Part shown: positions 5,235 through 56,209 of the stretch, piece after piece
Layout of the letters: every line of letters starts with the position of its first letter
Position numbering within the stretch: position 1 is the stretch's first letter
Source of the DNA: an uncultured Pseudomonadales bacterium
Lineage (GTDB): Bacteria > Patescibacteriota > Microgenomatia > UBA1400 > UBA12028
Direction: 5' to 3'
Length of the DNA: 64,000 nucleotides
Assembly (NCBI GenBank): GCA_964509365.1
Contig: CAZDWN010000002.1
Location: 167,671 to 231,670 of the forward strand
Notes under the pieces: model-generated
What the model was told of the DNA's origin: nothing
The model's input: only the letters and a program-made list of their open reading frames with translations
Database searches by the model: none
Translations under genes and position numbers: made by a program

Positions 5235-5243
5235 TATACTGAA

Positions 5244-10779: not shown

Positions 10780-10921
10780 ATGGTCCTCCTTATAAATGTT
10801 TTCTCTTATGGAGAAAATAGTACTACATTCAGTTAAGAGAATTGGTGAAGCGATGTCAATAGTAGGAATACCTTTTTTGAGGGTTGTACTAATTTTCGTG
10901 TGAATTACTATTCAAGACAGG

Positions 10922-25615: not shown

Positions 25616-26035
25616 ATGTACTACAGATATATGGAAACACAAAATGTCACCAAGACAGTACAAACCAAACAAGTGGGAAATACAGCAGTGCGACAGGAGC
25701 AAGTCACTGCAGGCACTATCGTCGATCCAAATGAGTTTACGATCGCCAAAGCCTCGGACGTGCTCTGGTATTTTGGCCATTTGATCGCAGTGATTTTGGG
25801 TCTTCGCTTCGCTTTCTTGGCATTGGGGGCGAACTTACGAGGCATCGTGCTTTTCATTTACACGATTAGCAATGTCTTCGTCCTTCCTTTTCGCGGCATC
25901 TTTCCATCGCCAAGAGAAGGAGAGTTTTTCTTTGACACCGCTGCGTTACTCGGAATCGTGATGTTTTATTTGATCATTTTCTTGATCACGAGCGCCATCG
26001 CCCTGTTTTCAAAAAAGACTGATACGCAAGTCTAA
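25616..26035 (+). CDS. Hypothetical membrane protein
   Basis: 139 aa with three predicted TM helices. Confidence 0.4.
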   Translation: MYYRYMETQNVTKTVQTKQVGNTAVRQEQVTAGTIVDPNEFTIAKASDVLWYFGHLIAVILGLRFAFLALGANLRGIVLFIYTISNVFVLPFRGIFPSPREGEFFFDTAALLGIVMFYLIIFLITSAIALFSKKTDTQV

Positions 26036-26508
26036 TGCGAATTGAGATTTCCACACGCAATGATCGTAGGATCATCTTTTGTGGCAGTCACGACGACGGC
26101 GAGTCTTCCCAATGCGTGAATTTGGTCAATCGTCAGCTCCAAATCCGTCTCTGAGGTCCCTGAGTCTGGCACAGTGAGTGTAAAGACGGTATCTCCCAAA
26201 TCATCACATGCACCTTGCTTCACGAAAGAGGGTTGAATCTCTTCATCATCATCAGGGGCAGTGGGAAATTTGAGATACAAATAGGTGGTCGACGTCAACT
26301 CACGATACGTGGCCGTCCCGTCCATTCCGGAATTGCCAATCGCGTGAATAGGATAGACTTCATCAACATGCGGAGGGAGCGGAGTCGCTTTGATGAGCGA
26401 CCGTTCGTACTCATGTTGACGCTTGGCATTCACAAAGAATGTGCCAAGCACCACGATACACATACAGATGAAAACCCATCGCAACACCGTCATAGGTATT
26501 AGTGACAC
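26032..26508 (-). CDS. Hypothetical secreted or membrane-anchored protein
   Basis: 158 aa with an N-terminal hydrophobic segment; last gene of the minus-strand surface array. Confidence 0.35.
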   Translation of the reverse strand: MSLIPMTVLRWVFICMCIVVLGTFFVNAKRQHEYERSLIKATPLPPHVDEVYPIHAIGNSGMDGTATYRELTSTTYLYLKFPTAPDDDEEIQPSFVKQGACDDLGDTVFTLTVPDSGTSETDLELTIDQIHALGRLAVVVTATKDDPTIIACGNLNSH

Positions 26509-28751
26509 ATGGTCGTCCCTGAGTCAGTGAACGTCTTTCCTGCTTCAGGCACGAACTGCCAGTCGTAACTATTGGAATGAAGTGTCAATTTGAGGACCCC
26601 ATAGGTACTCTGGTCAAACACTTCACTATTTGGTTGACGGACAGCTAAAGTCGTGTGGTTTGCTCCACCAGTACCGACGACGAACTCTCGAATGCCTCGG
26701 ACAGGATCAGCGACGCCGTTTGCATCTTGCGGTGCAAATCGCTCATACGTGTGATCATGGCCTGAGAGGATGAGGTCTGCATTCTTACTATAGAGAAGTG
26801 CAAACATACTCTTCATGTTGATACTTGCGCGTCCACCAGATGAGTGCACTGGAATATGGTAATAGGCCATCGTGCACTGTGTTGGGTTATTCGCAAGATC
26901 TTGCTGCAACCACACATATTGTGGTGAATTCGCGTTACATCCACCTGCTTCTCCACAGTTGGAGTTGAGCACAACGATATGCCATGCACCTTTGTTATAA
27001 CTGTAGTACCCCTTTGTCGGATCACCGGCACTGGCACCGAAATAGTTAAAGTATCCACTGGCCATAGAATTCGTAGCGTTGCAAGCGGTAGATTCAGCTG
27101 GAGTGGCGCCGCCATCAGTCAAATACTCGTGATTACCGACAGCAGGATAGGTGATGGATTTAAATTGTCCCCAACTTGTGTCATAAGATGCATTATATGC
27201 TGCCAACGAACCACAGTAGTATTGATTGTCTCCGAGAGAGATGACTGCTGATGCGCTCATGGAAGCGATCAATGAGGCCGTCGCCTTGGCCCGGCAATTT
27301 GCACTCGTGCCGTTTCCGTTATTAAAGCTTGCGATTAATGGGTCACACGCGATATCTCCTGCAGCTGCGACCACTGGATCAGCACTTGGTGTGGCAGTCG
27401 GAGTAGGACTTGGTGTCACGGTAGGTGTCGGCGTTGGAGCTATGGTTGGGGTTGGTGTCGGGGTGGGAGTACCAGTCGTCGCGACGTTCACGACGAGTGT
27501 CGGCTTATTTACCGTTTCTCGTGATCCGTAATACACGGCATCGTTCGGTGAGGTATTCGCGATCGCGAAATCATAGGTTCCATTGCCAGTTACCGTCCCA
27601 GCTGGCAAAATAGCTTCGAGCCACAGAGCCACTTTTGATGGATTCGGGAAACTTGTAATAGCACTACCGAGAGCTGGCGCATTTGCCCATGTCAGGGTGC
27701 TTTCATTCCAACTTCCCGTTGGTCTAAAAATTTGGCCACTGATCGATGATCCATTGACTGGTGCGAGCACTTTCAGGCTCGTACTCGAGATCGTCGATCC
27801 AGCAGGAATCCCCGTGACGACGAAACGTACGAAACTCTTCATCGTGCGCGCAGCATCATTTTGGACTTTGAGATCCGGATCTGCTCCATAATTGACGTTG
27901 ACCGTGTTCGACTGAATATATGCATCTTCAGTTGAGGTAAATGTCAGCGGTCCGGTGACAACTGGAAGGGCGTCGGGGCTTGGCGATGGCATGACAGTCG
28001 GTGTCGCAGTCGGCATGATTGTTGGTGAGGGAGCTCGAGTCGGTGTCGCTGTTGGCGTCACATCTGGAGTGACTAGAGGTGTTGGGGTCGGTGTATCTGT
28101 CGGAGTGACCGTTGGCACTGGGGTTGGCGCCGCCCAAGTGAGTACCAATGTTGGTTTGTTCACCGTTTCGCGTGATCCAAAATAGATCGCGTCAGTTGGC
28201 GAAGTGTTCGCAATTACGACATCATAATTTCCGTTACCAGTCACAAACCCAGTAGGAAGTGTGGCTTGTGTCCACGTAGCGGTCTTTGAAGGATTCGGGA
28301 AACTCGTAAGAATGGTTCCCATGGCAGGAGCATTGGTCCATGTCAACGTATTTTCAGTCCAGGCTCCTGTCACTCGATAGATGGCTCCTCCAATGGCTGA
28401 TCCATTCGCAGGAGCGAACATTTTCAGAGTCGCACTCGTAATAGTCGCCCCATCTGGAATACCAGTGACACTAAATCGAACGTAGCTCCTCATGGTACGT
28501 ACGGCATCATTTTGGACTTTGAGATCTGGGTCAGCTCCGTAATTCACGTCCACGGTATTTGACTGAATAAACGCATCCTCAGTCGAGACAAAGGAGACCG
28601 CTGTATCCGCCACCGCCGGCGCCGTGAGGATCCGAGTTGCGAATACCAAAGCAGCCGCGATAGTTACTATCGCAGCTGCAAGGGCTATATATCGTTGATT
28701 TTTGGACACAATTGAGTTTTTCATATTGTGAAGTATATCACAATAACTCAA
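26499..28751 (-). CDS. Secreted protein with two tandem DNRLRE domains, P/T linkers and a C-terminal purple-acid-phosphatase-like metallophosphatase
   Basis: Two ~155-aa repeats (STEDA[FY]IQSNTV[DN]VNYGADPDLKVQNDA...SRETVNKPTLV) and PT-rich linkers. The metallophosphatase motifs AAAGDIACDP, LGDNQYYCG, AVGNHEY and SGHDHTYERF are all present. Confidence 0.7.
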   Translation of the reverse strand: MSYCDILHNMKNSIVSKNQRYIALAAAIVTIAAALVFATRILTAPAVADTAVSFVSTEDAFIQSNTVDVNYGADPDLKVQNDAVRTMRSYVRFSVTGIPDGATITSATLKMFAPANGSAIGGAIYRVTGAWTENTLTWTNAPAMGTILTSFPNPSKTATWTQATLPTGFVTGNGNYDVVIANTSPTDAIYFGSRETVNKPTLVLTWAAPTPVPTVTPTDTPTPTPLVTPDVTPTATPTRAPSPTIMPTATPTVMPSPSPDALPVVTGPLTFTSTEDAYIQSNTVNVNYGADPDLKVQNDAARTMKSFVRFVVTGIPAGSTISSTSLKVLAPVNGSSISGQIFRPTGSWNESTLTWANAPALGSAITSFPNPSKVALWLEAILPAGTVTGNGTYDFAIANTSPNDAVYYGSRETVNKPTLVVNVATTGTPTPTPTPTIAPTPTPTVTPSPTPTATPSADPVVAAAGDIACDPLIASFNNGNGTSANCRAKATASLIASMSASAVISLGDNQYYCGSLAAYNASYDTSWGQFKSITYPAVGNHEYLTDGGATPAESTACNATNSMASGYFNYFGASAGDPTKGYYSYNKGAWHIVVLNSNCGEAGGCNANSPQYVWLQQDLANNPTQCTMAYYHIPVHSSGGRASINMKSMFALLYSKNADLILSGHDHTYERFAPQDANGVADPVRGIREFVVGTGGANHTTLAVRQPNSEVFDQSTYGVLKLTLHSNSYDWQFVPEAGKTFTDSGTTMCH
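27491..28616 (-). repeat. Intragenic tandem duplication encoding the two DNRLRE domains
   Basis: The two protein repeats are about 70% identical, and DNA strings such as gtttctcgtgatcc recur at about 27515 and 28160. Confidence 0.5.
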
Positions 28752-28752
28752 T

Positions 28753-30906
28753 TTATTTTATTATAAGCATTGCTTTCCCACTGCTGGCCTCAGCTGAACG
28801 GAAGACACCAGAGGTAGAGTCGCTCGCAATGACGATCGATGTGACCTTCCCAGCACGACTTCTAAAGAGTGATGTCAAGTCGACACTATTGCCATTAAAC
28901 GTACCGATTTTTTGTCGGGTGATCGATGGTCGGGAATTCCAGGTTAGGATGTTTTCTCCCCAAGATGTATTGTTAATCCAGTACACACTCATACCGTTGG
29001 CGGAGCCTGAAGTTGCGGTCAATTTCAGCACAGCCGAGTGGATCTTGGATGACGAAATGCCGTCAAGGTCGAATTTTAAGTACACTTCCTTGCGAGGACT
29101 GTTGTCCACTTCTAGCGTCGTTGCCTTCCCATAGTTCGTATTCCCTGCAGACTGATTGACAGTCGCATCGTGGGTCGGGTAAAGCAGCTTACCAATGATA
29201 TCGTCATTGTCGCCATCGCCAGGTGGAGTTGTAGCCACTGGCGTAGCAGTCGGCCGAGTAGTCGGCGATGGAGTCGCAGTCGGCTGCGGAGTCACTGTCG
29301 GCGTCCCAAACGGAGTTGCCGTTGGGAATGGGGTCACATTTGGAGTACTCGTCGGTACCACCGTCGGAATTGGCGTCACAAATGGCGTTGCAGTCGCAAT
29401 TGTGGTCGGTGTCGGTGTGATCGCATTGCAGTTTGTCCCCAATCCAGTCGGGATACAAGCGGTGTTTGCCAAGAGCAGTAAAGTATCAATCTTCACTCCC
29501 GCTTCCTTTTGGATGAGCTTAAAGGTATGAGTACCTGCACCGAGAGCTGTAATTGTGCGATTAGTCGTGACTCCATCGCGATAGTCGATCCACTGCCAGC
29601 TATTGACAGGCATCGCCGCATTGTCACCAATGACTGCAGGACAGGTCGAGTCGACTTGGAGATAGTATGCATTTGAAGCAGTTCCGGCAGACATCATACG
29701 TGTCCAGATGGCGTATGTGCCAGCAGTGACATTCGTTGCCGTCAGTGTCGCACTTGGTAATCCGGTGACATTGACGTTACAGGCGACTGGCGTCGACGTT
29801 GGATTTGCTGTCACTGTTGGTGTCGGCGTAGCTGCACGAGGAGTGGCAGTTGCGGTTGGTTGCGGGATCGGAGTGGCTGTTGCTGGACGAGGCGTAGGAG
29901 ACGCAGTTGCTGGCGTGGTTGGAGGTGGCGTGACCACTGGTCCGCCATTATCCGAGATCGTGAAGCTGTCTCCAAATGTCCCACCTGCCGTACGCACAAA
30001 GCTGTACGTCATTTGTGTCGGCGTGACGACGAATTTGCCGATTCCATACGTCGTAATATCATACGAGTTAAAATATTGAGCTTCAGCGTCTCCGGTATTG
30101 AGTGAACGAAGCGATTGACCCCCAGTGCCGATGACATGAATGATTGTCCCAGCACCTTTGGTAAGTGAGTTTCCAGAATTGACGACACAAGTCGAATCAA
30201 ACGTGCCGGTCTTTGCACAGGTAAGTTGCTTTGATCGCTCATATCCATGCTCATGACCTTGCAAGATGACATCTACTCGCTTGTTTATCATCATTGGGAT
30301 GAGATCAGCACCAAGTTCATTCCCTTTTTCCATCATACTGATATAGTTTTTATGCATTCCGACGACGACCCATTTGATCCCTTTGGCGTGCGCATCATCG
30401 ATTGCGTTTGCAGTAAACGTATATCCTTGACTCCCGACTTTATAGTTTGTATCCATGCCGACAAAACTTCCACCAAGGCCTGGAGAGATCATAATGAAAC
30501 GAATATATGGGTTTGACGCTGGATAGTCCCAGTAGTATTGTTTGCCGTAGGTACCGGTGACGGTGGCAGCCGGAGCTAGACAGTTTGCAATATAGGTATT
30601 GATATTCCCGGAGCTACTTTCCCCACTGTCATGATTACCTGAGACGAGCATCAAATTCACTCCTGCAGTCTTCCAAGCTCCACACCATGACGCTTCAGCG
30701 GTCGTGTATGCGAGATCTCCTAGAGCGAGATGGAATGCTGGATTGATACCTTTCGCTGCAGCGACGGCGGCCTGAAAATTGCCACCATTGGCATAGTCAC
30801 CAGCGGCAGTAAATGTCACTGATTGCGCTCTCGCTACGGAACTGAAACTTACAAACAGAGCGGTCACTAAGGCGACGATTGGAAAAAGATAGGTGAGTTT
30901 TTTCAT
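28753..30906 (-). CDS. Secreted protein with an N-terminal metallophosphatase, a beta-rich middle region, P/T linkers and a C-terminal DNRLRE domain
   Basis: Signal peptide, then the motifs FTAAGDYANGG, LALGDLAYT, VSGNHD and LQGHEHGYERS. C-terminal NTNYGKATTLEVDNSPRKEVYLKFDL...WNSRP (DNRLRE). This is the reverse domain order of the neighbouring gene. Confidence 0.7.
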   Translation of the reverse strand: MKKLTYLFPIVALVTALFVSFSSVARAQSVTFTAAGDYANGGNFQAAVAAAKGINPAFHLALGDLAYTTAEASWCGAWKTAGVNLMLVSGNHDSGESSSGNINTYIANCLAPAATVTGTYGKQYYWDYPASNPYIRFIMISPGLGGSFVGMDTNYKVGSQGYTFTANAIDDAHAKGIKWVVVGMHKNYISMMEKGNELGADLIPMMINKRVDVILQGHEHGYERSKQLTCAKTGTFDSTCVVNSGNSLTKGAGTIIHVIGTGGQSLRSLNTGDAEAQYFNSYDITTYGIGKFVVTPTQMTYSFVRTAGGTFGDSFTISDNGGPVVTPPPTTPATASPTPRPATATPIPQPTATATPRAATPTPTVTANPTSTPVACNVNVTGLPSATLTATNVTAGTYAIWTRMMSAGTASNAYYLQVDSTCPAVIGDNAAMPVNSWQWIDYRDGVTTNRTITALGAGTHTFKLIQKEAGVKIDTLLLLANTACIPTGLGTNCNAITPTPTTIATATPFVTPIPTVVPTSTPNVTPFPTATPFGTPTVTPQPTATPSPTTRPTATPVATTPPGDGDNDDIIGKLLYPTHDATVNQSAGNTNYGKATTLEVDNSPRKEVYLKFDLDGISSSKIHSAVLKLTATSGSANGMSVYWINNTSWGENILTWNSRPSITRQKIGTFNGNSVDLTSLFRSRAGKVTSIVIASDSTSGVFRSAEASSGKAMLIIK

Positions 30907-30910
30907 ATGA

Positions 30911-31432
30911 TTAATCCAGTCGTAAATCGGCTACTATTTCTACGTTGTTTCCTTCGACTTCTGCAGCGATATACCCTTTGTATTCTACTCCATTGATCTC
31001 GGCTGAAATATGATCGACCTGTTCACCATTTGAAGTTGGATCGTCAGTCATCACAATTTTCCACCCTTGAGCTTTGAGTTCCGTCTCGTACCAACGCATG
31101 ATCTTTGGCACCTCATCATGCGAGATCCATAATACACGATACCCTTGATCAGGCTCACCTTCTTTATTTACTTTTGATGAAGCTTCGAGAGTCGCACCTG
31201 GATAGACGGGAAACGATGGGAAGCCAGCGACGATTTCACCTTTGTATTCAGGGAAGCTTGGATCTGTAGCTACTTCTTTTTTCTCAGTGTTTGCAGGATC
31301 AGATTGGACTTCCTGGAAAGCAAATCGAGGGGACGTTCCTGATTGCATGCCGCGCTTGTACCACATTCCGCCTGCAACGGCAAGGATGACGACTGCAAGG
31401 ATGACGGTGAGTGTGAGGAGTTGTTTATTCAT
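30911..31432 (-). CDS. Hypothetical membrane-anchored protein
   Basis: 173 aa with an N-terminal TM helix. Confidence 0.4.
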   Translation of the reverse strand: MNKQLLTLTVILAVVILAVAGGMWYKRGMQSGTSPRFAFQEVQSDPANTEKKEVATDPSFPEYKGEIVAGFPSFPVYPGATLEASSKVNKEGEPDQGYRVLWISHDEVPKIMRWYETELKAQGWKIVMTDDPTSNGEQVDHISAEINGVEYKGYIAAEVEGNNVEIVADLRLD

Positions 31433-31435
31433 AGA

Positions 31436-33628: not shown

Positions 33629-33672
33629 ACTCTAATAATTACATACTCTTCTTACACTTGTCTACGGCCAAC

Positions 33673-38562: not shown

Positions 38563-38572
38563 AGGAATGTCT

Positions 38573-39040
38573 TTACTGAACGATTACCGTTCCCTTCAAT
38601 CCTGGATGCAGGGTGTCTTCATAGGTATAGGAACCTACTTTATTAAAAATAATTTGTCCGGATTTTTTTGGAGTGATTGGAATGGTCTGCGCACCACCAG
38701 TGACTGAAATTTGATGCTTCGCTGTATCGTCATTGGTCCAGAGGATGGTGGTGCCCTTCTTGATTGACACGGGGTCAGGAGAAAAGCCAGTAGATTTGAT
38801 AGACACTTTTACATCATCCAAATATACTTCACCATGAGCAATCTCTTCTGCAGTTGGCTGATCTTCATTTTCTGCGCTTTCATCTTCTTCAAGCAGTTTG
38901 TTAACATTTTCTTTTTTGTCTGCAGGAGCGTCTTTTTGGAAAAACAATTGATATTTACTGCTGAGCTCTGTTTTTGCGAAGATCACACCGGCGCCAATTA
39001 CTATTGCGATACAGATTATAATTGGCGCCGTCTTTTTCAT
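38573..39040 (-). CDS. Small membrane-anchored cupredoxin-like protein (Cupredoxin_1-like, with no Cys ligand)
   Basis: TM helix, acidic linker, then TGFSPDPVSIKKGTTILWTNDDTAKHQI...GSYTYEDTLHPGLKGTVIVQ. This matches the cupredoxin-like pattern (FSP..[IL]T[IV]K.G...W.N.D...H...Y.[FY].C..HP.MKG.I.V), but Asp sits where the Cys ligand would be. Confidence 0.45.
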   Translation of the reverse strand: MKKTAPIIICIAIVIGAGVIFAKTELSSKYQLFFQKDAPADKKENVNKLLEEDESAENEDQPTAEEIAHGEVYLDDVKVSIKSTGFSPDPVSIKKGTTILWTNDDTAKHQISVTGGAQTIPITPKKSGQIIFNKVGSYTYEDTLHPGLKGTVIVQ

Positions 39041-39044
39041 CGTA

Positions 39045-43754: not shown

Positions 43755-43811
43755 ACTCTCAGTATTTCGAATTTGAGAGTGAGAGTCAATAAGGAATTGT
43801 GAGGCCTATCA

Positions 43812-44195
43812 CTACTTGACTATGATTGTCCCCACATTTTGTGGCAACATTTGGTTGTGATAAGTGTACTTGCCTGCTTTGGTGAAGACATGGATTAGTG
43901 TTTGATTGGGAGCGAATCGTCCAAGGTTGAGTTCTGGATATTTTCTGTTGGCTGGGTAATCGTCCGAGTTGACTGACGCGGGGACGAGGCTAGCGTTTTT
44001 AAATCGCACTGCTTGCCCGGGTTTGATCGTCAGCTCTTGAGGACTAAAACCGCTTGACGTCAGTGTCACGGTATTTTCAGTTATGGGAGCTGCAGGATTC
44101 CCAGAAGACTGTCGTCGGTATTTGCCTTCAAATAAGAGAAAGCCAAAAAGGATGATCAATCCGCCGACGATATACATTTGCATTTTAGTGGTCAT
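43812..44195 (-). CDS. Second small membrane-anchored degenerate cupredoxin-like protein (start MTTKMQ at 44195; the ATG overlaps the TGA of the upstream giant gene as ATGA)
   Basis: GAGGAG SD 6 nt upstream, a TM helix, then SGFSPQELTIKPGQAVRFKNAS...GKYTYHNQMLPQNVGTIIVK. It is paralogous to 38573-39040 but lacks both the Cys and His ligands. Confidence 0.45.
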   Translation of the reverse strand: MTTKMQMYIVGGLIILFGFLLFEGKYRRQSSGNPAAPITENTVTLTSSGFSPQELTIKPGQAVRFKNASLVPASVNSDDYPANRKYPELNLGRFAPNQTLIHVFTKAGKYTYHNQMLPQNVGTIIVK

Positions 44196-47100
44196 TTTCT
44201 TCTCCTCACGGTGCTGGCAAGCGACTTTTGCTGCCAGAGATAATACTTCGTTTTTCGATATGGCACAAACCCAGTTCGCATGACAAAGGTACCAGACCAG
44301 TTTCCCGGTGCGCAATTGTTTTTCGCTCTGACTTTAAAGGTATAGTACGTGAATGGGCGGAGTGCTCCAATCTGGATGGGGACAGCGCCACTCGAAGAGG
44401 TGATTGGGAAGTTATATGCATAGTAGTCATCATGCCAGTTGACTCCATAGGAGACGACAAATGAGGTATACGGTCGTGTCGGAGGTGCCATATACAACGT
44501 CGCAGTTGTTGCACTTGCGTCAATTTGATAGATCACTGGCGCTCCCAATGGTGGCATATCGACACAAGTCGTTTCCGCGATCGACGTGGAACTCCCTGAT
44601 CCACTATCGGAGAGCAGGTTCTGTGTCGATACAAGAGTAAAGAGAGAGAACTGCGAGATGCTGCAAGTGATCTGGAACGCATCAAGGGAGTTGGAGCAGT
44701 TTGCTTGTGACCAGGCTCCGTTATGGTACTGCATGACCGCGATACTGGATCGATTGATCCGATTCAATTCGCTTTCACTATAGGCAATCGTCATCGAGAT
44801 CGGTTGATCAAAATCCGTGATCGTGTCAGTGATCGACGAAAATGCTTTGACGTCATACGTGTGATTGCCAATCGTGTTGTATCCATTTGGGAGGAATAGT
44901 CCTTGCAATGCAATTGATGAATCGAGCTGGTGAATTTGAAAGACTGCTGAGTGCGTACTGTACCCGATCGGCACATACAGTCTCATTCCATGACCATTCG
45001 CGTCAAAGCCATCCACGATTCCTCCTGAACTGAAGGCGACTTGTCCATCAGACTCTTTGAGGACTCCTGAATTTCCGCTACAGCCTTGCGACGTAAAGAT
45101 TTGATCGTCGCTGACGGCACTATCGCCTACATCATTGAGTGATTTGATTTGGACATGATAGGTCGAGCAATTGACGAGTCCGCTCAACGTGACCGAGTGA
45201 TTGGTTACCCCATCCAAATCTGCAGATGAGTTCGCAGTGTAAAAACTCGTGAGTCCGTACGAGAGCTCAGAGTCAGCCAGCAAATTCGTCGTCCACGTCA
45301 GGATTGCTCCAGTCGAGGTGGGAGTGATCGAAAGATCTGAGATCGTCAAATTCCCTGAGGGAGTTGGAGAAGAGGTCGCAATCATTCCAAAATTGACAGA
45401 GGTGTTTGTGGTGACTGACACATCTACTAGATTTGGCGTCGTCCCTGTATATCCATTGGGGAGCGTGTACGCCACTGTATACGTTCCTTGGTTGAGTGAC
45501 GAGAATGTGTAATTCCCACTAGAGTCCGTCGTCGTGGAGCTATTGCTGCTCCCAGATAATGAGATGAGTTGATTTGCGTATCCAGTCTCAGCATTGTCTT
45601 GCACGCCGTTTTGATTGGTATCGATATAGAGCGTACCAGTCAATGAGAATGTTGGACTTGGCGTCGGCGTTGGGGAGGTGTTGACGCCAGTCCCTTCTGG
45701 AAGATCTGGTAAGTACGTGTGGAGCACATCGATGTAATTTTCTTCAAACAGCGATCCATTTGGGTTGACTGTCGCTGAAGCAGTGCTATTTGCTTGAGAT
45801 ACTTCGACACCAGGCTCTACAGATGATCCTTCTCCCCATTCGTTCCAGGTCTCGACGAGCTTCCAAGTGGCGTTGGAAGCGACCATACTTTGAGCCGCTG
45901 TCGAGAATGCCGATAAATCGCGAGGCAGTCTGACAATATCGCCTGTGAGCCAGAACCCTGGCGAGATCATGTATGCATACGCTCCTTGACTGTCGGTACG
46001 GACTGCAGGCGCATACTGATGCCAAGAATCGGGCTGGCAAGCGTCCGTCGTATATCCTCCAAATACTTTCAACACGACGTAAAACGGCGTGACCGCAGCA
46101 TCATTAGCCTGTTTCCAACGAGCCGTCATGGTCGAATCGTTACAGTTGGTATTTGAAGTCCCTCCATCAGTTGGTGTCGCATAGACAAAGATAACTGGCT
46201 TGTTATTGATGCGCAGATACGATGATTGATTTGCATAGTTTGAAGCAATGTAATTGAGGTCGGATGTCAGTTGGCTGACACTTGGGTTGGTCGTCCCATT
46301 ACACGTTCCCCCTTCACACTCGTAGTACATCGCCCAGCGCAAATTCGGATACGGATTATCAGGTCGTGACATAAAATCGGTCAACTGGTGAGACAGGGCG
46401 ACATCCGATCGATCCCCTTGGCCCCACCAGGAAGCGATCGCGACTTCTTGCTTTGCGTGCGCCATTTTTGTGAGCTGCCATTTGAAGATGTTGTAGTCAT
46501 TTGAGCTATACAGCGACGTCGATGGAGTAAACGTATCGACCACTGGCTGCGGCAAATAGTTTGAGTACCAGTTAGCAGGTGGCACATGAGTGCCATTTGC
46601 ATCTGGATCAGCCCAAATTCCCCACTGATTCGAACCATCGGTATTCGGGTTCTTGTACCAGTTATAAAAGAACGTCGCGTAGTAGGGAGCGGCTGGCTGG
46701 AAAGCCGTGTCGACTGTTTTGATTCCGAAGTTTACCGTACTGTCATTGGTGAATGTCGCGGTAACCGGATCAGCTGTCGTAGCTGTATATCCGGCTGCAA
46801 GTCTTGCGGTGACAGAGTAACTACCTGAAGTCAAATTACTAAACGTGTAAATACCAAAGGAGTCGGTGGTCGAGGATGACGATCCGGTGCCAGACAATTT
46901 GACAGTCACACCTGCCTGCCCTGCTTCATTGAGGTCTTGCACTCCGTCGTGATTCGAGTCGAGATAGACGGTACCTGTGATCGATACTGGCACCGCTGGA
47001 GTCGGTGTCGGAGTCGGGCTCGGAGTCGGCGTGGCTGCAGCAGTCAAGAAATGACAGTCGGCGGAACCACTCTCAGTAAAAGTGCCGTTGGTAAAGTTTT

Positions 47101-50100
47101 GAGTACTAGCCGATGGGACAAATTCATAGTCAAAGCTAGATTGATGCAACGTCATCTTGAGGACGCCAAACGTAGTCGCGTCAAAGACAGCACTATTCAC
47201 GTCGAGACCATTTGAAGACAGTTGTGTGTGATTACGTCCGCCAGTCCCGACGACAAACTCAGTGATTCCATTGGTGTTATCGACAAATCCACTGTTGTTC
47301 GTAGGATAAAATCGCTCGTAATTGTGATCGTGCCCGACGAGGAACACATCAGCATGCGCTGCATAGAGATCGCCGTAGAGATTGTCCACACCAGCGTTGT
47401 GAGGTTGCTGACCTGAGGAGTAGCGAGGATGATGCGCATAGGCGAGGAGACACTTTCCAGCGTTCGCCGCTAGATCAGCCTTGAGCCACACATCTTGAGG
47501 CGAACCATTGTCACACCCACCAGCCTGCGAACAATTGGTGTTGAGAGCCATCAAGTGCCAATTGCCAATATTGTAGCTATAGTAGCCAAGCGATCTGTTC
47601 CCAGCATTGCCAGATTGGATCCCAACTCCATTGAAATAGTCGAAGTACCCTGCAGCTGATGTCGTTAGGTACTCGTGGTTTCCCACCGATGGAGCTGTTA
47701 TCGATTTAAACAGCCCCCAAGTCGGATCATAATGCGTTTGAAAATCAGCGAGTGAACCGTCTTCATATTGATTGTCTCCGAGTGGAAGTACTGCACTCGG
47801 ATTGATATCCGCTATCGTATCTGAAGTTGCTGTTTCCTGGCATGACGCACTGGTACTTCCAGCTCCGCAGGCAATGTCTCCTGCGGCGGCGATCACTGGA
47901 TCGCCAAACAAGTCAGAGAAGTCCTCAGTCCCGACGTCAGCAGCGTGCCCCAGCAGCGGAGTGAGTCCAAAAATATTTTGAATGGTCTTGACGTACGAAC
48001 TGTGAGAGTAGGTGCGACTGTTTGAATAGCCGTGCCCTTTGGTTTGCGGTGATATCGCGATCATGCCTATCGGACGATTCGTCGTGCTTCCGCTGTCTTC
48101 ATCCCACATAACAAAGATCGCAGCATGCCCCGCCTGATAGGTTGCTGAATTCAAGATTGTCGGCAAATTTGTCGAGAGCCACGTGTCGGCGTTTTTTATT
48201 TTGTCTTCGCCACCTGGACAACCTGCGTCGTGCCCATCATTACAGGTATTTGGAGTGATGAAGTTATAGTCAGCTACCCCATTGCCTGTACCAGCGAGGT
48301 CCGAGGAAAGCTGAGTAAAGTCAAACTCGTGAGCGATACAATACGTAGAGCTTGCATTTGGTGTCCCTATTCCGCCAGGAGCCAACAGTGATGAGACATC
48401 TTGGAAGAATACAAACGGACTGTGGCGAGGGATAAAGCGTGTCCCATTTCCGATTGGACAACCTGACGGTTTGTTTTCCTGATAGGCCCTCCAGACTTTC
48501 CCGGCGGTATTGAGTTGCGTAGCCAAATGAGCTGAGGACGTCGTCGACGACGACGTTGGCGTGTCGTCCACAGTAAACGTAATATCAGAAAAGATATTTG
48601 TCCCAGCTTCCATCCAGATATAATTAGGCTCAGATGGATGCAAGTATCCTGAGAGGGTTTCACTCGGCAGCACACTTCGATAATTTTGAGCGTACACGAC
48701 ATTGGAATGCACCGCATTCAAAGAGCCATCTGTATTCACACCACTGACGAGGCTATTGAGGTACGGGGCTGAAGTGGTATTGCCAATGACGTTAGCGCCA
48801 TCTTCGTTTTCAAGCACAATCGTGAATACTTTCGTGATGTTGGCTGAGAATGAGTACGGTACCACTGGTACTGGCGTCGGGACTGGTGTGGGCACCGGCG
48901 TCGGAGTTACGATGGTCGAGTTCTGGACCTGCAAGTCATCAAATGAGACACTGACAGGCATATTCGTCACTGCACCAAGTCGTCCAAGCAGTCCAATCGA
49001 GCCCGCTTGTTGCAAGATCGTAGCCGAATCTGTCGTCGTATAGTGCCAGGAGCTTGGTTCCGTATTCCCATCCAGCCACGCTCTGGCATTGATGGTCGTC
49101 GGTGCACCTCCTTGCAGTTGCACATGGACGTCCAGCCACGACCCAACCGTGTAGGTGAGCCCCGCGACTTGCGTCTCCGTCCCGAGCCCAGTCTCAGCGT
49201 TTGTGAGTATTTTTGAAGAACGTAAAAACACGTGACCTGATGGATCCACTCGTACCCATCCTCGATACTCATTGCCGCTCGAGACATGCCGTCCGATGAG
49301 GTAGACATAATTTCCAGTCGATACGTCTGGTAATTTGTCATATTTAATTTTGACCGTGTAGTCGACGTTTTGGGCACTCACATTATCAAGTCGCACTGTA
49401 CGCTGATTGGCACTTCCAGTGGCCGTCAGGACGATGGTCCCTTGTGCCCCATCGACCAAGAATGCACTTGCTGAACCTACTTGGGTATAGGAACCTCCAG
49501 TGTCTGCACTTCCCCATCCATTCGCGATGATGCGAGTAAATGTATCCATTGCAACTGTTGACGTCGTTGATTGTTGGATACCGACATTGCTCACCGTATT
49601 TGTCGAGAGTGGCACAGTGACCGGATTAGTCGTCGTCGAAAGGTACCCATTTGGGAGCGTGATTGTCTCGGTATACGTCCCCGCAGGTAGCGTCGCAAAT
49701 GTATAGTCACCGGTAGCATCGGTCGTCGTGGACGCAGACGTCGTTCCGGTAATCGAGACGGTAACGCCTTGATATCCACTTTCTGAGATGTCCTGCACGC
49801 CATTGCCATCCAAGTCCACGTACACTTTTCCACTCAGAGAATACGTTGGCGCCGCAGTTGGCGTCGGTGTCGGAGCGATCGTATCAGCGGTGAGTGAAGC
49901 GTACGTAAACAGGATTGGGGCGTTATTCACGGCTGCAGGAAGAGAGGATCGTACACCGACCGCACCTGGAGCCTGAAGACCAGATTCGGAGTCTGTCCCA
50001 GTAAAAGTCCAGCTCCCTGGCTCAGCATCACCATCTTTCCAAAGCTTCAAATTCATGGTTGTCGGATTGATCCCAGTGACCTGTGAGCGGATCCAGTAAT

Positions 50101-51340
50101 AAGTGTCAGCGACTGGCGTATCAGCCGCATTCACTTGCGTTCCGATATTGCTTTCGACTGCAGAGACCAGTTTGGTCCCCACCAATGCGATCGTCCCCGT
50201 TGTCGTGATCTTGGCACGGGCACGATATTCGTCGGATCCGATTCTTCGCAAGATGACACTGACCCCGGCATCTGCACTTGAAGCTGTCGTTGGCAATTTG
50301 TCGATCTTAAATTTAAATTTCATGTCTGCATTCTGGATGGAAACACTATTCAGGAGAGCATATCGACTGAGGCCAGCAGTGATTCCATTGATCGTCGCTT
50401 GTCCATTCGTCACAGCGTAGTCACTCGCAGTTCCTTCAAGTGTGTAATCACCTCCAGCATCTGCAGTTCCCCACCCACTGCTTACCGTACGTGCGTACGT
50501 ATCGGAAGCGCTCGAATAAATTGCCGGTGTCGGCGTCGGAGTAGGAGTTGGTGTCGCGGTAGGTGTCGGACTAGGAGTCGGTGACGGATCATTGTCAGTA
50601 AATGAGTAATCATCAAAGGTATAGAGGAGTGGAGCATTGGTAGAACTCGTAGACAAACGAGCTAAGATACCAGCGGAGCCAGCTGCCTGGAGTGCAACTG
50701 AAGAATCTGTACCAGTGTATTGAGCACTTCCAGGTTCACTATTCCCATCAGCCCAGGCTTTCATCGTCAATGTAGTAGGATTTGTCCCACTGACCGTGAA
50801 CCGAAGTTTGAGGTAATTATCCGCTGTATACGTGAGACCCGCAGCATTGCTCGATGTACCGATCACCGTCTCACTTCCTCCGACGAGGGCTGTTGCCTGG
50901 ATCGCTACCGTGCCATTGGTATTGAAGATGAGACGACCACGATACTCATTGCCTGTGGAGATATGACGGAGTGCCAGATACGCGACTTGGGTCGCTCCCG
51001 CTGAGACTTTATCAACCTTCACTTTCATGGTTGCATCACCGTCGAGCGAGCTCACGCCCGCAAGAAATGCATTTTTATTTTGATTGGCAGCCGTAAGACT
51101 CATCGTCCCTTCGCTGCCCGTGACATTAAACTCTGCAGCAGTACTGATACCGGTCCCGCTGACGGTCCATGCGCCTCCAGTGGTAGCAGTTCCCCACCCG
51201 CTGCTCACTGATCGCGTGAACGAATCCGACGCAGGAGTACCAGCTCCAAAGACGACGGCTCTCGAGAGACCAAAAAATATCGCGAGCATGATGGCGACAA
51301 TAGGGATAAATAGAGCTGGTCGATCGATCGTTCTGTGCAT
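44192..51340 (-). CDS. Giant secreted multi-enzyme megaprotein (2382 aa): three ~220-aa N-terminal repeats, three Cna-B/SdrD-B domains, a PLC/AcpA-type phosphoesterase, a metallophosphatase, a GH99-like domain, FN3 domains and a basic C-terminal tail
   Basis: Signal/TM at the N-terminus. The N-terminal repeats share [FY][TA]R.VSSGWG[TS]A..GG.[WY]T. SdrD-B-like domains are present (KVYVDLDGNGVQDISESGYQGVTVSITG...DATGDYTF). The phosphoesterase region has TIVLENEDGANVIG...FVMWDEDSG. The metallophosphatase has AAAGDIACGAGS, LGDNQYEDG, SVGNHEY and VGHDHNYERF. A GH99-like YYATFFYNWYKNPNTDGSNQW...ASWWGQ region and P/T linkers are also present. Confidence 0.75.
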   Translation of the reverse strand: MHRTIDRPALFIPIVAIMLAIFFGLSRAVVFGAGTPASDSFTRSVSSGWGTATTGGAWTVSGTGISTAAEFNVTGSEGTMSLTAANQNKNAFLAGVSSLDGDATMKVKVDKVSAGATQVAYLALRHISTGNEYRGRLIFNTNGTVAIQATALVGGSETVIGTSSNAAGLTYTADNYLKLRFTVSGTNPTTLTMKAWADGNSEPGSAQYTGTDSSVALQAAGSAGILARLSTSSTNAPLLYTFDDYSFTDNDPSPTPSPTPTATPTPTPTPTPAIYSSASDTYARTVSSGWGTADAGGDYTLEGTASDYAVTNGQATINGITAGLSRYALLNSVSIQNADMKFKFKIDKLPTTASSADAGVSVILRRIGSDEYRARAKITTTGTIALVGTKLVSAVESNIGTQVNAADTPVADTYYWIRSQVTGINPTTMNLKLWKDGDAEPGSWTFTGTDSESGLQAPGAVGVRSSLPAAVNNAPILFTYASLTADTIAPTPTPTAAPTYSLSGKVYVDLDGNGVQDISESGYQGVTVSITGTTSASTTTDATGDYTFATLPAGTYTETITLPNGYLSTTTNPVTVPLSTNTVSNVGIQQSTTSTVAMDTFTRIIANGWGSADTGGSYTQVGSASAFLVDGAQGTIVLTATGSANQRTVRLDNVSAQNVDYTVKIKYDKLPDVSTGNYVYLIGRHVSSGNEYRGWVRVDPSGHVFLRSSKILTNAETGLGTETQVAGLTYTVGSWLDVHVQLQGGAPTTINARAWLDGNTEPSSWHYTTTDSATILQQAGSIGLLGRLGAVTNMPVSVSFDDLQVQNSTIVTPTPVPTPVPTPVPVVPYSFSANITKVFTIVLENEDGANVIGNTTSAPYLNSLVSGVNTDGSLNAVHSNVVYAQNYRSVLPSETLSGYLHPSEPNYIWMEAGTNIFSDITFTVDDTPTSSSTTSSAHLATQLNTAGKVWRAYQENKPSGCPIGNGTRFIPRHSPFVFFQDVSSLLAPGGIGTPNASSTYCIAHEFDFTQLSSDLAGTGNGVADYNFITPNTCNDGHDAGCPGGEDKIKNADTWLSTNLPTILNSATYQAGHAAIFVMWDEDSGSTTNRPIGMIAISPQTKGHGYSNSRTYSHSSYVKTIQNIFGLTPLLGHAADVGTEDFSDLFGDPVIAAAGDIACGAGSTSASCQETATSDTIADINPSAVLPLGDNQYEDGSLADFQTHYDPTWGLFKSITAPSVGNHEYLTTSAAGYFDYFNGVGIQSGNAGNRSLGYYSYNIGNWHLMALNTNCSQAGGCDNGSPQDVWLKADLAANAGKCLLAYAHHPRYSSGQQPHNAGVDNLYGDLYAAHADVFLVGHDHNYERFYPTNNSGFVDNTNGITEFVVGTGGRNHTQLSSNGLDVNSAVFDATTFGVLKMTLHQSSFDYEFVPSASTQNFTNGTFTESGSADCHFLTAAATPTPSPTPTPTPAVPVSITGTVYLDSNHDGVQDLNEAGQAGVTVKLSGTGSSSSTTDSFGIYTFSNLTSGSYSVTARLAAGYTATTADPVTATFTNDSTVNFGIKTVDTAFQPAAPYYATFFYNWYKNPNTDGSNQWGIWADPDANGTHVPPANWYSNYLPQPVVDTFTPSTSLYSSNDYNIFKWQLTKMAHAKQEVAIASWWGQGDRSDVALSHQLTDFMSRPDNPYPNLRWAMYYECEGGTCNGTTNPSVSQLTSDLNYIASNYANQSSYLRINNKPVIFVYATPTDGGTSNTNCNDSTMTARWKQANDAAVTPFYVVLKVFGGYTTDACQPDSWHQYAPAVRTDSQGAYAYMISPGFWLTGDIVRLPRDLSAFSTAAQSMVASNATWKLVETWNEWGEGSSVEPGVEVSQANSTASATVNPNGSLFEENYIDVLHTYLPDLPEGTGVNTSPTPTPSPTFSLTGTLYIDTNQNGVQDNAETGYANQLISLSGSSNSSTTTDSSGNYTFSSLNQGTYTVAYTLPNGYTGTTPNLVDVSVTTNTSVNFGMIATSSPTPSGNLTISDLSITPTSTGAILTWTTNLLADSELSYGLTSFYTANSSADLDGVTNHSVTLSGLVNCSTYHVQIKSLNDVGDSAVSDDQIFTSQGCSGNSGVLKESDGQVAFSSGGIVDGFDANGHGMRLYVPIGYSTHSAVFQIHQLDSSIALQGLFLPNGYNTIGNHTYDVKAFSSITDTITDFDQPISMTIAYSESELNRINRSSIAVMQYHNGAWSQANCSNSLDAFQITCSISQFSLFTLVSTQNLLSDSGSGSSTSIAETTCVDMPPLGAPVIYQIDASATTATLYMAPPTRPYTSFVVSYGVNWHDDYYAYNFPITSSSGAVPIQIGALRPFTYYTFKVRAKNNCAPGNWSGTFVMRTGFVPYRKTKYYLWQQKSLASTVRRRK
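48910..51235 (-). repeat. Three diverged intragenic repeats encoding the ~220-aa N-terminal modules of the megaprotein
   Basis: The protein repeats span residues about 35-250, 270-490 and 590-810, separated by PTPTPT linkers. Confidence 0.5.
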
Positions 51341-52786: not shown

Positions 52787-53155
52787 TCAACGCTTCGTGA
52801 TTATCGATTTCACTTTCGATAAAAGTTCATCCATTTCAAATGGTTTGGCGATAAAATCGTCAGCACCGGCAGCTTTCGCTGATTCCTTGACGTCGCGACT
52901 TGCCGATACCATGATGATTGGCAGTGCCGCAGTCGACTTCTTTCCTTTCAAATACTTGCAAACATCTCTCCCATCTGCTCCCGAGAGCCAAATGTCCAGG
53001 AGTATCAAGTCAGGCAGCGGCGCAGACAGCGCTCTGACCACCTTGGTGTCATCGGTGGTGCGCACGCTATATCCTTCAGTTTCCAAGATCATGGTCATAG
53101 CGTCGGCGATCGCTGGATCATCTTCGGCAACGAGGATAGCATATGGTGAGTTCAT
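52787..53155 (-). CDS. Stand-alone response-regulator receiver domain (CheY-like)
   Basis: ILVAEDDPAIADAM...LILLDIWLSGADG...PIIMVSA...GADDFIAKPF has the full acidic pocket and conserved Lys. Confidence 0.8.
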   Translation of the reverse strand: MNSPYAILVAEDDPAIADAMTMILETEGYSVRTTDDTKVVRALSAPLPDLILLDIWLSGADGRDVCKYLKGKKSTAALPIIMVSASRDVKESAKAAGADDFIAKPFEMDELLSKVKSIITKR

Positions 53156-56144: not shown

Positions 56145-56209
56145 CGCTATAGCATACGTTCGACACGTAAGAAAAATGTAAAAATCGAGTGAGAATGGTA
56201 AAATAAGAA

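Follow-up and report, generated by a model that had tools for sequence, protein, structure and literature searches.

The window analysed here, a 64-kb stretch of one contig, carries on its minus strand (26032-51340) ten tightly packed ORFs, g1 to g10, which extend over 25 kb (Table 1). They take up 39.5% of the window, in agreement with the roughly 40% given in the initial annotation, and the ORF coordinates listed there all exist exactly. Nine consecutive anchored genes had been reported; the single strand and the anchoring hold, but the count has to be raised to ten, with an uncertain eleventh member upstream of g10. Exactly one N-terminal hydrophobic segment was found in each of the ten proteins. 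These segments, together with six conserved Cys common to the purple-acid-phosphatase (PAP)-like metallophosphoesterase (MPE) domains of g2, g5 and g10, support a predicted export of the g1-g10 proteins. The genes are spaced by -10 to 57 nt and separated by no convincing terminators, which suggests that they are co-transcribed; promoter and terminator scans gave results at chance level. Judged from its sequence, the host belongs to the CPR (Patescibacteria) and is Woesebacteria-like, its SecA sharing 80% identity with a Ca. Woesebacteria protein. Neither a phosphate transporter nor a proven Pho regulator was found within the window; a WalK/PnpS/PhoR-like histidine kinase, scoring below every cut-off, is situated 1.8 kb upstream of the array.

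Pfam and NCBIfam profile searches gave no match for g1, g4 and the possible eleventh ORF. The small interleaved proteins g7 and g9, not mentioned in the initial annotation, are cupredoxin-fold proteins (Pfam Cupredoxin_1 E 1e-9 and 2e-8, respectively). For g7 the amicyanin/plastocyanin models stayed below cut-off, the type-1 copper Cys is missing and no Cys occurs outside the anchor. The g9 protein is Cys-free, and its longest ORF reaches 44315.

Table 1. Genes and domains of the minus-strand array (window positions).
Feature	Position	Strand	Description
g1	26032..26508	-	158 aa, N-terminally anchored; hydrophobic segment at residues 1-30; 10-nt overlap with g2 stop
g2	26499..28751	-	Signal-anchor, 2 x CBM96/DNRLRE, PT linker, C-terminal PAP-like MPE
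g2 MPE	26502-27389		Pfam Metallophos E 3e-8
g2 CBM96			Pfam CBM96 E 1e-48; NCBIfam DNRLRE agrees
g3	28753..30906	-	Sec signal peptide, N-terminal PAP-like MPE, unassigned beta-rich middle module, C-terminal CBM96
g3 MPE with Metallophos_C	29902-30825		Pfam
g4	30911..31432	-	173 aa, anchored small protein
g5	31436..33628	-	Signal-anchor, GH99-like TIM-barrel, Ser/Thr/Pro-rich linker, C-terminal PAP-like MPE
g5 MPE	31439-32281		Pfam
g5 GH99-like	32315-33310		Pfam
g6	33673..38562	-	1629 aa, signal peptide, 5 x DUF7483, fn3, Big_13, C-terminal Pur_ac_phosph_N-like FN3
g7	38573..39040	-	155 aa, anchored cupredoxin-fold; start 4 nt after g8
g8	39045..43754	-	1569 aa, signal peptide, Ig-like N-terminal region, PAP-like MPE
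g8 MPE	42180-43253		With ~90-aa insertion
g8 further modules			6 x CarboxypepD_reg, 3 x ~195-aa Cip1-like/ConA-like modules
g9	43812..44195	-	Anchored cupredoxin-fold, ~127 aa from ATG overlapping g10 stop (ATGA)
g10	44192..51340	-	2382 aa, anchor, 3 x ConA-like lectin/CBM modules, CarboxypepD_reg
g10 PF04185 phosphoesterase	~47921-48838
g10 PAP-like MPE	47021-47911
g10 GH99-like	45653-46702
g10 spacer domains			SdrD_B between MPE and GH99-like; SdrD_B/SpaA and fn3 after GH99-like
Possible eleventh member	51401..52003	-	Anchored, ~200 aa from internal ATG, 60 nt upstream of g10

Catalytic and carbohydrate-directed domains

Pfam Metallophos scored above cut-off in g2, g3, g5 and g8. Pfam did not detect the MPE domain of g10, not even in a scan of that domain by itself; the domain was recognised by its 53% identity to that of g5 (BLASTP E 3e-95). 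The five metallophosphatase domains with intact motifs described initially are thereby confirmed, while the sixfold expansion was overstated, because the catalytic domains number five. The sixth protein, g6, ends as proposed in a non-catalytic PAP-N-like FN3 domain (Pur_ac_phosph_N, Pfam E 3e-10); a catalytic domain is absent, MPE-family motifs looked for in g6 were not found, and it is presumably a surface fibre or adhesin. The placement of the MPE domain at either terminus applies to g2 and g5 (C-terminal) and g3 (N-terminal), but the g10 domain is internal.

The concern that the motifs might belong to unrelated folds or have lost metal ligands was not borne out. In the alignment all seven ligands (D, D, Y, N, H, H, H; in g5 D461, D495, Y498, N527, H609, H644 and H646) are kept in the five domains, and every motif block is intact, including the motif-IV His that had not been listed before. 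Six of the ligands are invariant among 26 homologues, at least 90% of which keep the Tyr. By sequence as well as by fold, PAPs are the nearest solved proteins: the g3 domain matched plant PAPs in the PDB (E 1e-5), and Foldseek with the AF2 model of g5 (pLDDT 78.7) retrieved PAPs with E 4e-13 and a TM of 0.69 to the human and pig enzymes. The similarity to characterised PAPs is remote, with 14-20% identity and sequence E values of 1e-4 to 1e-5. Taken from sequence and modelled fold, the five MPE domains look catalytically active and PAP-like; an assayed or characterised member of this subfamily was not found in the literature.

Profile searches likewise verified the proposed DNRLRE, GH99-like, PF04185, CarboxypepD_reg (six in g8) and Cna-B (SdrD_B/SpaA in g10) modules, and the PT-rich linkers are present in the array proteins. 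Pfam GH99 exceeded the cut-off in g5 and g10, whose domains are 51% identical to each other; the match to the model does not extend beyond its first half. The g5 domain matched a Bacteroides GH99 in the PDB (E 2e-9), its WNEWGEG aligning with FNEWHEG and placing E376/E379 on Bt E329/E332; this catalytic Glu pair is invariant across the family. Foldseek with the g5 model pointed to GH99/MANEA as well (E 2e-10, TM ~0.6). Weak matches were also obtained to the WbsX, DUF5010 and GH71 models, and the domain may represent a distinct GH family in the same clan. The GH99-like match is as remote as that of the MPE domains to characterised PAPs, and therefore no sugar specificity can be inferred.

PF04185 was detected in g10 with E 3e-16 on the isolated piece. 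The DNRLRE domain equals CBM96, and the Pfam CBM96 and NCBIfam DNRLRE models exceeded their cut-offs by a wide margin, twice in g2 and once in g3. The triple module of g10 has a CBM66/L-type-lectin fold according to model and Foldseek. The ~195-aa modules of g8, initially called LamG-like, are weakly supported as such, with a profile match to Cip1 (3zyp, E 0.004); they are present also in loci L039 and L016. Those array modules that had no other assignment are sandwiches of the ConA-like lectin or Cip1-like type.

Age and distribution of the modules

The initial annotation interpreted the array as a local, ongoing expansion with active module shuffling and related it to genome reduction. Neither view is supported by our data. 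The five MPE domains share only 23-55% identity in pairwise alignment and split into at least four old subfamilies in the tree, and no DNA repeats of more than 85% identity over more than ~50 nt were found in the array. The g2 domain shares 60-62% identity with Chloroflexota copies and is nested in a Chloroflexota/Actinomycetota clade, and the g8 domain groups with divergent copies from Chloroflexia arrays. Chloroflexia MAGs with large genomes contain equally dense arrays of the same PAP-like, CBM96, GH99-like and PF04185 modules; three such loci (L016, L027 and L006) harbour 3-4 MPE genes with CBM96, GH99-like and PF04185 homologues within 12-20 kb. Proteins combining CBM96 with a PAP-like domain occur also in Micromonospora, a cultured member of the Actinomycetota.

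The domain combination, regarded initially as undescribed, is so in the literature but not in databases. The MPE subfamily comprises ~4,700 representative clusters at 50% identity, and the GH99-like+MPE architecture has more than 500 relatives, many of them with CBM96 too and one uniting CBM96, MPE, fn3, PF04185 and GH99 in a single protein. The module set is widespread and biochemically unstudied in soil bacteria, and therefore offers a useful lead but does not amount to a new type of system.

Among CPR relatives only the g5-g4-g3 triad is conserved. Orthologues of g3 share 75% identity in L082/L083 and 44% in L085, and g4, whose position between g5-like and g3-like genes is kept, shares 51% (L082) and 36% (L085) identity with the ORFs at the corresponding place. 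Three relatives that have the atp operon in common with the host lack the array at that site. Hence, given that only the triad is conserved, the array may not be one functional unit. In one related locus, dockerin and cohesin proteins adjoin the same enzymes.

Proposed function and alternative readings

An extracellular scavenging arsenal, as suggested initially, is still the most economical reading. Observed directly are the export signals, the identities and folds of the domains, their intact catalytic residues and the co-occurrence of the modules across phyla; from these we infer enzyme activities, a substrate class and a physiological purpose for the array. With somewhat better than even confidence, we propose that the array is an exported set of phosphoesterases and endo-glycosidases directed at glycans. 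Its targets would be phosphorylated glycopolymers or glycan-associated organophosphates, from which it would obtain phosphate and probably sugars. The enzymes would be located at the cell surface or secreted, where the five binuclear (Fe/Zn- or Fe/Mn-type) MPE domains would hydrolyse phosphomono- and/or phosphodiester bonds. The CBM96, ConA-like lectin and Cip1-like modules might hold them on a probably anionic polysaccharide; for CBM96 this binding is an extrapolation from one characterised alginate-binding member (PMC9971899). The GH99-like endo-glycosidase of g5 and g10 would cut the glycan chain, and PF04185 (PLC/AcpA family) in g10 could act as a second phosphoesterase unrelated to MPE. 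Stalks or adhesive spacers would be provided by g6 and the Ig/FN3/CarboxypepD_reg/SdrD_B repeats. Phosphate and probably sugars would thus become available to a cell whose own biosynthetic capacity is small.

It is conceivable, albeit unlikely, that the array serves generic scavenging by broad Pho-type phosphomonoesterases, in which the CBM, lectin and repeat modules only anchor the enzymes to the envelope or biofilm matrix of the cell itself, and the GH99-like domains have an unrelated glycan function. PAPs are classically broad-specificity phosphomonoesterases, and the upstream histidine kinase would fit such a role. Soil bacteria secrete numerous phosphatases of this broad kind (PMC9306846). 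Members of the MPE family are frequent among the Actinomycetota, Chloroflexota and Acidobacteriota of soil. However, the more than 500 covalent MPE/GH99-like fusions and the recurrent PF04185 and CBM96 neighbours argue for a shared glycan-borne substrate, and five diverged paralogues with differing binding modules suggest different targets. The array might instead be a weapon or feeding device with which an episymbiont strips phosphodiester-linked envelope polymers (wall/lipoteichoic acids, phosphoglycans) from a host or neighbour, with g6, g8 and g10 as host adhesins. Cultivated CPR members are episymbionts, MSCRAMM-type SdrD_B domains occur in the giant repeat proteins, the PAP-fold enzyme PhoD of Bacillus subtilis breaks down wall teichoic acid, and the dockerin/cohesin proteins of the related locus would fit as well. 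We consider this improbable, as teichoic-acid specificity is without evidence, no host is known, and the module set is not peculiar to symbionts, since free-living Chloroflexia with large genomes and Micromonospora carry the same module arrays.

The structural neighbours of the MPE domains include lupin diphosphonucleotide phosphatase/phosphodiesterase PPD1 (3zk4) and the cyclic-nucleotide phosphodiesterase Rv0805 (3ib7), and CPR bacteria commonly lack nucleotide synthesis. MPE and PF04185 could then be nucleotide phosphodiesterases, nucleotidases or nucleases feeding a nucleotide-auxotrophic cell, but this appears quite improbable in view of accessory modules that are all carbohydrate-type, a glycosidase as MPE fusion partner, and the absence of nucleic-acid-binding and 5'-nucleotidase C-terminal domains. 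Another structural neighbour is GAP50, a non-catalytic PAP-fold anchor; g6 lacks a catalytic domain, and the CarboxypepD_reg repeats of g8 match an anammox S-layer glycoprotein model, far below cut-off. That the array proteins are surface-layer or adhesin proteins, whose hydrolase-like domains are inactive binding modules, is nevertheless very hard to reconcile with seven metal ligands retained in the five paralogues and across homologues, and with an invariant GH99 Glu pair, since pseudo-enzymes normally lose such residues.

Comparison with known systems

The array MPE domains share with PAPs, including Rv2577/MmpE of Mycobacterium tuberculosis, the calcineurin-like alpha/beta sandwich, the five motif blocks, the PAP-specific ligand set with the GDxxY tyrosine, and secretion. 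Rv2577 has phosphatase and phosphodiesterase activity and depends on Fe3+/Zn2+ (PMC7642983, PMC12999176). Apart from the low identity, the array differs from PAPs in that PAP-N directly precedes the catalytic domain in none of the five catalytic proteins, Metallophos_C was detected only in g3, the six conserved Cys are extra, and the fusions to CBM96, lectin-like, GH99-like and PF04185 domains are found on no characterised PAP. PhoD of Bacillus subtilis, an alkaline phosphatase/phosphodiesterase, is a secreted PAP-fold, Fe-containing enzyme that recovers phosphate from an envelope glycopolymer, teichoic acid. It belongs, however, to another Pfam family (PF09423), which no array protein matched, and is exported via Tat without CBM or GH fusions, unlike the array MPE proteins. 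CBM96 sits here on phosphoesterases, whereas its founding member is the alginate-binding module of an alginate lyase (PMC9971899).

The GH99 endo-alpha-1,2-mannosidases/mannanases (Bacteroides BT3862, BxGH99, human MANEA) have the same fold and NEW(H/G)EG Glu pair as the array domain, which is ~17-20% identical to them. In the yeast-mannan loci of Bacteroides thetaiotaomicron, the endo-acting GH99 BT3862 and the phosphatases BT2630/BT3783 act jointly on phosphorylated yeast mannan (PMC4978465). Those are separate proteins of a Sus-type PUL in a diderm, whereas the window of the CPR host is without SusC/D, but the fusion of a GH99-like domain with a phosphoesterase in the array follows the same logic.

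Organization of the array and its chromosomal neighborhood

The array at 26032-51340 consists of ten consecutive minus-strand ORFs, here named g1 to g10 by rising coordinate, instead of the nine genes counted in the initial annotation, whose ORF coordinates were all reproduced by our ORF scan and whose domain calls were mostly confirmed by Pfam and NCBIfam searches. The intergenic distances range from -10 to 57 nt, with an ATGA overlap between g9 and the g10 stop if g9 is read from its internal ATG, and the encoded 8,430 residues correspond to 39.5% of the window. In promoter and terminator scans, the counts resembled those of shuffled sequence and are therefore uninformative on operon structure; tRNA genes and Rfam matches were absent from the window. 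All ten products possess one hydrophobic segment, located at the N-terminus, and a C-terminal sortase-type (LPXTG-type) sorting signal was found in none of them. Hence, the array products are predicted to be exported or N-terminally anchored, and sortase anchoring was rejected. The ORF upstream of g10 may represent an eleventh anchored protein if its translation starts at an internal Met. A small N-terminally anchored protein regularly trails a large enzyme gene or gene pair (g9 after g10, g7 after g8, g4 after g5, and g1 after g2).

Features of the array and neighboring ORFs (coordinates of array genes from the ORF scan, modules from Pfam/NCBIfam)
Feature	Coordinates	Strand	Modules or remarks
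g1	26032-26508	-	
g2	26499-28751	-	2 x CBM96 + Metallophos
g3	28753-30906	-	Metallophos + Metallophos_C + CBM96
g4	30911-31432	-	
g5	31436-33628	-	GH99-like + Metallophos
g6	33673-38562	-	5 x DUF7483, fn3, Big_13, terminal Pur_ac_phosph_N; catalytic domain absent
g7	38573-39040	-	
g8	39045-43754	-	Metallophos + 6 x CarboxypepD_reg
g9	43812-44315 (longest ORF); 43812-44195 (from internal ATG)	-	
g10	44192-51340	-	CarboxypepD_reg, SdrD_B x3, SpaA, GH99-like, fn3
139-aa ORF	25616-26035	+	between atpB and g1; C-terminal transmembrane segments; no family match; overlaps g1 stop by 4 nt on the opposite strand
Candidate eleventh anchored protein	51401-52108		upstream of g10
YfcE/Metallophos_2-type phosphoesterase	52005-52766	+	apparently cytoplasmic; divergent, just upstream of array
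Sensor kinase	53152-54774	-	PAS-HisKA-HATPase
Adjacent ORF pair	54633-56252	-	apparently one split gene
ORF with g10-like C-terminus	60735-62648	-	637 aa; matching part 60780-61073

Downstream of the array, an F-type ATP synthase operon, greA, a class II aminoacyl-tRNA synthetase gene, serS, rarA and secA were found. SecA shares 80% identity with a protein of Candidatus Woesebacteria, every named close match belongs to Patescibacteria, and the comparison of the ATP synthase a-subunit agrees with this placement, which makes the initially assumed reduced genome of the host plausible. Upstream of the array, the YfcE/Metallophos_2-type gene has counterparts near g5-like genes in two related loci (L081, L082). 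The best models for the sensor kinase are WalK, PnpS and PhoR, all below their cut-offs, and no adjoining response regulator was recognised; the protein could act as a phosphate or cell-wall sensor. In the adjacent ORF pair, the shorter ORF (173 aa) matches the N-terminal part of FAD-dependent amine oxidases, and the longer one (361 aa) matches the remainder and also contains a Rieske [2Fe-2S] domain; a frameshift may have split the gene, or the start of a genuine FAO-Rieske fusion may have been mis-called.

Catalytic domains and accompanying modules

Metallophosphoesterase (MPE) domains occur in g2, g3, g5, g8 and g10. Four of them exceed the PF00149 cut-off of 21.5 bits (g2 34.6, g3 29.5, g5 39.1, g8 34.6); that of g10 escaped detection by Pfam, even as an isolated piece, and is recognised by its 53% identity to the g5 domain (E 3e-95). 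All five can be aligned over their full length, and the seven metal ligands of purple acid phosphatases (PAPs), arranged in five blocks (GDxx / GDxxY / GNH[DE] / xxxH / GHxH), are present in every paralogue, namely the Asp of AAGD, the Asp and the Tyr of GDxxY, the Asn of GNH(E/D), the His of (H)HP and both His of GH(D/E)H. The HH and GHDH blocks line up with those of pig and rat PAP. Among g5 and 25 homologues, six of the ligands are invariant and the Tyr is kept in at least 90%. The best PDB sequence matches are mammalian and plant PAPs, at weak E values of 1e-4 to 1e-5. The AlphaFold (AF2) model of g5 has a mean pLDDT of 78.7, with values mostly >85 in the catalytic domains and mostly 80-96 in the MPE domain; when this model was compared with the PDB by Foldseek, the top 31 matches were PAPs, PAP-type phytases and Rv0805 (E 4e-13 and TM 0.69 against human/pig PAP). 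By sequence and predicted fold, PAPs are thus the nearest solved proteins, and neither an unrelated fold nor a loss of metal ligands, either of which would have spoken against the initially proposed phosphatases, was observed.

The FN3-type Pur_ac_phosph_N (PAP-N) domain precedes none of the five catalytic domains according to Pfam, its sole copy being the C-terminus of the non-catalytic g6, and Metallophos_C was detected in g3 only. PAP-N is also missing from the low-molecular-weight mammalian PAPs, hence its absence is compatible with PAP-like chemistry here. The six conserved Cys residues in the MPE domains of g2, g5 and g10 would fit an extracytoplasmic enzyme.

The GH99-like domains of g5 and g10 match PF16317 with 43.3 and 37.9 bits (cut-off 33), covering only model positions 5-166 of 341. 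The best PDB sequence matches of this domain type are Bacteroides GH99 endo-alpha-mannosidases (E 2e-9, 17-20% identity), and the N-terminal catalytic domain of the g5 model was matched by Foldseek to MANEA and Bacteroides GH99 enzymes with E values of 2e-10 to 3e-9. The family-invariant WNEWGEG motif aligns with FNEWHEG, placing E376 and E379 of g5, both invariant across 26 homologues, onto E329 and E332 of the B. thetaiotaomicron enzyme. We take this Glu pair to be the GH99 catalytic residues, in agreement with PDB entries titled 'E333Q variant' and 'inactive E404Q variant'. No specificity can be deduced, because identity to the characterised enzymes is only 17-20% and weak co-matches to WbsX, DUF5010 and GH71 models occur; these co-matches also make the assignment to GH99 tentative.

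CBM96, the DNRLRE domain, reaches 165.5 bits in g2 (two copies) and 86.7 bits in g3 (Pfam cut-off 26), supported by NCBIfam NF033679 with 144 and 66.5 bits (cut-off 34). The putative PLC/AcpA-type phosphoesterase of g10 matches PF04185 with 59.9 bits when the piece is scanned alone (cut-off 23, E 3e-16, positions 119-355 of 356), and no sequence relative was found in the PDB. The modules initially described as LamG-like deserve this name loosely, as concanavalin-like sandwiches, and not in the stricter sense: the three modules of about 195 aa in g8 gave a weak full-length profile match to Cip1 (3zyp, E 0.004), and the three N-terminal modules of g10 were modeled as beta-sandwiches (pLDDT 67, pTM 0.72) with CBM66, L-type lectins, phage carbohydrate-binding modules and galectins as best PDB neighbors. 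The N-terminal region of g8 and the middle module of g3 gave sub-threshold Pfam matches only, and g1 and g4 had no Pfam match. The C-terminal approximately 100 residues of g10, FN3-like and preceding a basic tail, share 34% identity with the C-terminus of an otherwise unrelated ORF in the window; this common domain may serve in surface attachment or sorting.

Both g7 and g9 match Cupredoxin_1 above the Pfam cut-off, a feature absent from the initial annotation. Since the folded domain of neither protein contains a Cys, and plastocyanin and amicyanin models scored far below cut-off, a blue-copper redox role with a type-1 His-Cys-His-Met site was rejected. Such a Cys-less, anchored cupredoxin-fold protein follows each of two giant MPE genes, and g7 starts 4 nt past g8.

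Origin of the paralogues and distribution of the family

The identities among the MPE domains range from 23 to 55% (51-55% among g2, g5 and g10, 33-37% for g8, 23-26% for g3), and no direct DNA repeat longer than about 50 nt with >85% identity was found in the array. Moreover, closer relatives of three of the domains lie outside the window: the g2 domain is 60-62% identical to Chloroflexota copies, above any window paralogue, and g3 and g5 have orthologues with 75% domain identity in the CPR contig L082/L083 and further orthologues in the CPR relative L085. In an indicative neighbour-joining tree of 107 domains, calculated without bootstrap, g2 falls within a Chloroflexota/Actinomycetota clade, g3 and g5 stand beside their CPR orthologues, g10 branches next to the g5-CPR clade as its sister, and g8 clusters with divergent copies found in Chloroflexia arrays. 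Collectively, the low identities, the missing DNA repeats, the outside orthologues and the tree suggest that the array brings together at least four subfamilies of old origin, which may reflect either transfer between Chloroflexota and CPR or shared ancestry. The same evidence led us to reject recent in-situ duplication, and the sixfold expansion proposed initially does not hold as a recent local tandem event, because g2, g3 and g5 are closer to domains from elsewhere than to their window paralogues and no DNA repeat above 85% identity was detected.

The part kept in the CPR relatives L082/L083 and L085 is restricted to a triad of a g5-like gene, a g4-like small protein and a g3-like gene, in which g4 is 51% and 36% identical to its counterparts in the same position. 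Two other relatives carry a single g5-like gene. Another relative encodes a PAP-N-MPE-dockerin-GH99-MPE protein followed by a CBM96-MPE protein and a cupredoxin gene, with cohesin/dockerin genes and a LamG+PAP-N giant nearby; Cupredoxin_1 genes flank the MPE genes of this locus. In three relatives with a syntenic atp operon, unrelated genes occupy the space upstream of atpB. No close relative of g8 was found in the JGI metagenome collection and no g1 homologue among the related loci compared. The 25-kb array as such is lineage-specific and located at a variable site. Regarding the surroundings in relatives, L082/L083 encodes a 2,803-aa GH94/glycoamylase-type (cyclic beta-1,2-glucan-synthase-like) protein directly upstream of the triad (1512-9923), near sortase and dockerin-like genes. 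The Woesebacteria-like L086-L088 have extra small ORFs without family match between the ATP synthase genes, and their delta subunit is called as short fragments.

Beyond these genomes the family is large. A profile built from the MPE domains of g2, g5 and g10 matched 4,688 representative clusters with a limit of E <= 1e-30, a number that rises to 11,006 with E <= 1e-10; proteins with three or four domain copies are among them. Among the matches listed from species-representative genomes, which were mostly distant MPE relatives and not the closest CPR genomes, Chloroflexota, Actinomycetota (Micromonospora, Actinomadura, Streptomyces, Dactylosporangium), Acidobacteriota, Cyanobacteria and Saccharibacteria were represented. 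More than 500 relatives share the GH99-like+MPE architecture; CBM96 is present in many of them too, and one combines CBM96, MPE, fn3, PF04185 and GH99. The density of MPE genes in the window is matched in Chloroflexia: in L016, a stretch of about 12 kb contains a GH99/GH71-like gene and four MPE genes, of which three include CBM96; in L027, four MPE domains are accompanied by CBM96 and a GH99-like domain. Homologues of the PF04185 domain of g10 are present in both loci. The g8 module also occurs in L016 and L039, and the lectin-like module of g10 in L067. Present annotation of the family members goes no further than 'metallophosphoesterase', 'DNRLRE domain protein' or 'acid phosphatase type 7'. 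Our literature search found no paper on this MPE subfamily or its architecture and nothing relevant on Woesebacteria/Patescibacteria phosphatases or metallophosphoesterases, CPR PAPs or PF14307. The window holds an unusually large, lineage-specific set of an uncharacterised PAP-like MPE subfamily in a CPR genome.

Possible function and relation to known systems

Phosphoesterases of two types, an endo-glycosidase and carbohydrate-binding modules thus recur in fused or neighboring form, all in proteins predicted to be exported. In our opinion, the best explanation of this recurrence, which we favor with slightly better than even confidence, is that the array enzymes act together on phosphorylated glycopolymers or glycan-bound organophosphates; the exported phosphoesterases, endo-glycosidase and carbohydrate-binding modules would then release phosphate, and probably sugars. 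Functional precedents exist: in Bacteroides, phosphorylated yeast mannan is processed jointly by phosphatases and a GH99 endo-mannosidase (PMC4978465), and Rv2577, a PAP-like bacterial enzyme, has phosphatase as well as phosphodiesterase activity (PMC7642983). A characterised CBM96 binds the anionic polysaccharide alginate (PMC9971899); by extrapolation from this member, an anionic phospho-polymer would suit the CBM96 modules.

Among the other readings, generic phosphate scavenging appears unlikely, an attack on the host envelope quite improbable, and scavenging of nucleotides less probable still. The view that the proteins are inactive adhesins, i.e. pseudo-enzymes, is the least likely and hardly credible, because every catalytic residue is retained. 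A more far-reaching version of the joint action on glycan-bound phosphate is speculative and rather doubtful, ranking somewhat below generic scavenging: the combination of PAP-like, GH99-like, PF04185 and CBM96 domains might form a conserved extracellular machine across CPR, Chloroflexota and Actinomycetota that depolymerises a specific class of phosphodiester-containing glycopolymers (teichoic-acid-like or phosphomannan-like). Such a machine would be a new enzyme system lacking any characterised member; in the CPR bacterium it would be directed against a host envelope, with the translationally coupled, Cys-less g7 and g9 as dedicated metal-loading, oxidising or membrane docking factors for the binuclear center.

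If the proposed action on phosphorylated glycans is true, several thousand exported bacterial enzymes would couple a PAP-type center to glycan binding and cleavage, providing an unrecognised recycling route for organic phosphorus locked in phosphorylated polysaccharides, with bearing on phosphorus cycling in soil and groundwater and on the feeding of ultra-small CPR bacteria. A 507-aa CBM96+MPE protein is encoded in a cultured Micromonospora at 9272-10795 of locus L058, and such orthologues in this and other actinomycetes make the idea testable without CPR cultivation. The main value of our analysis is the pointer to an experimentally tractable enzyme family. It reveals no new kind of system: all domains are members of known superfamilies, and the architecture is already abundant in databases, where it goes under generic names.
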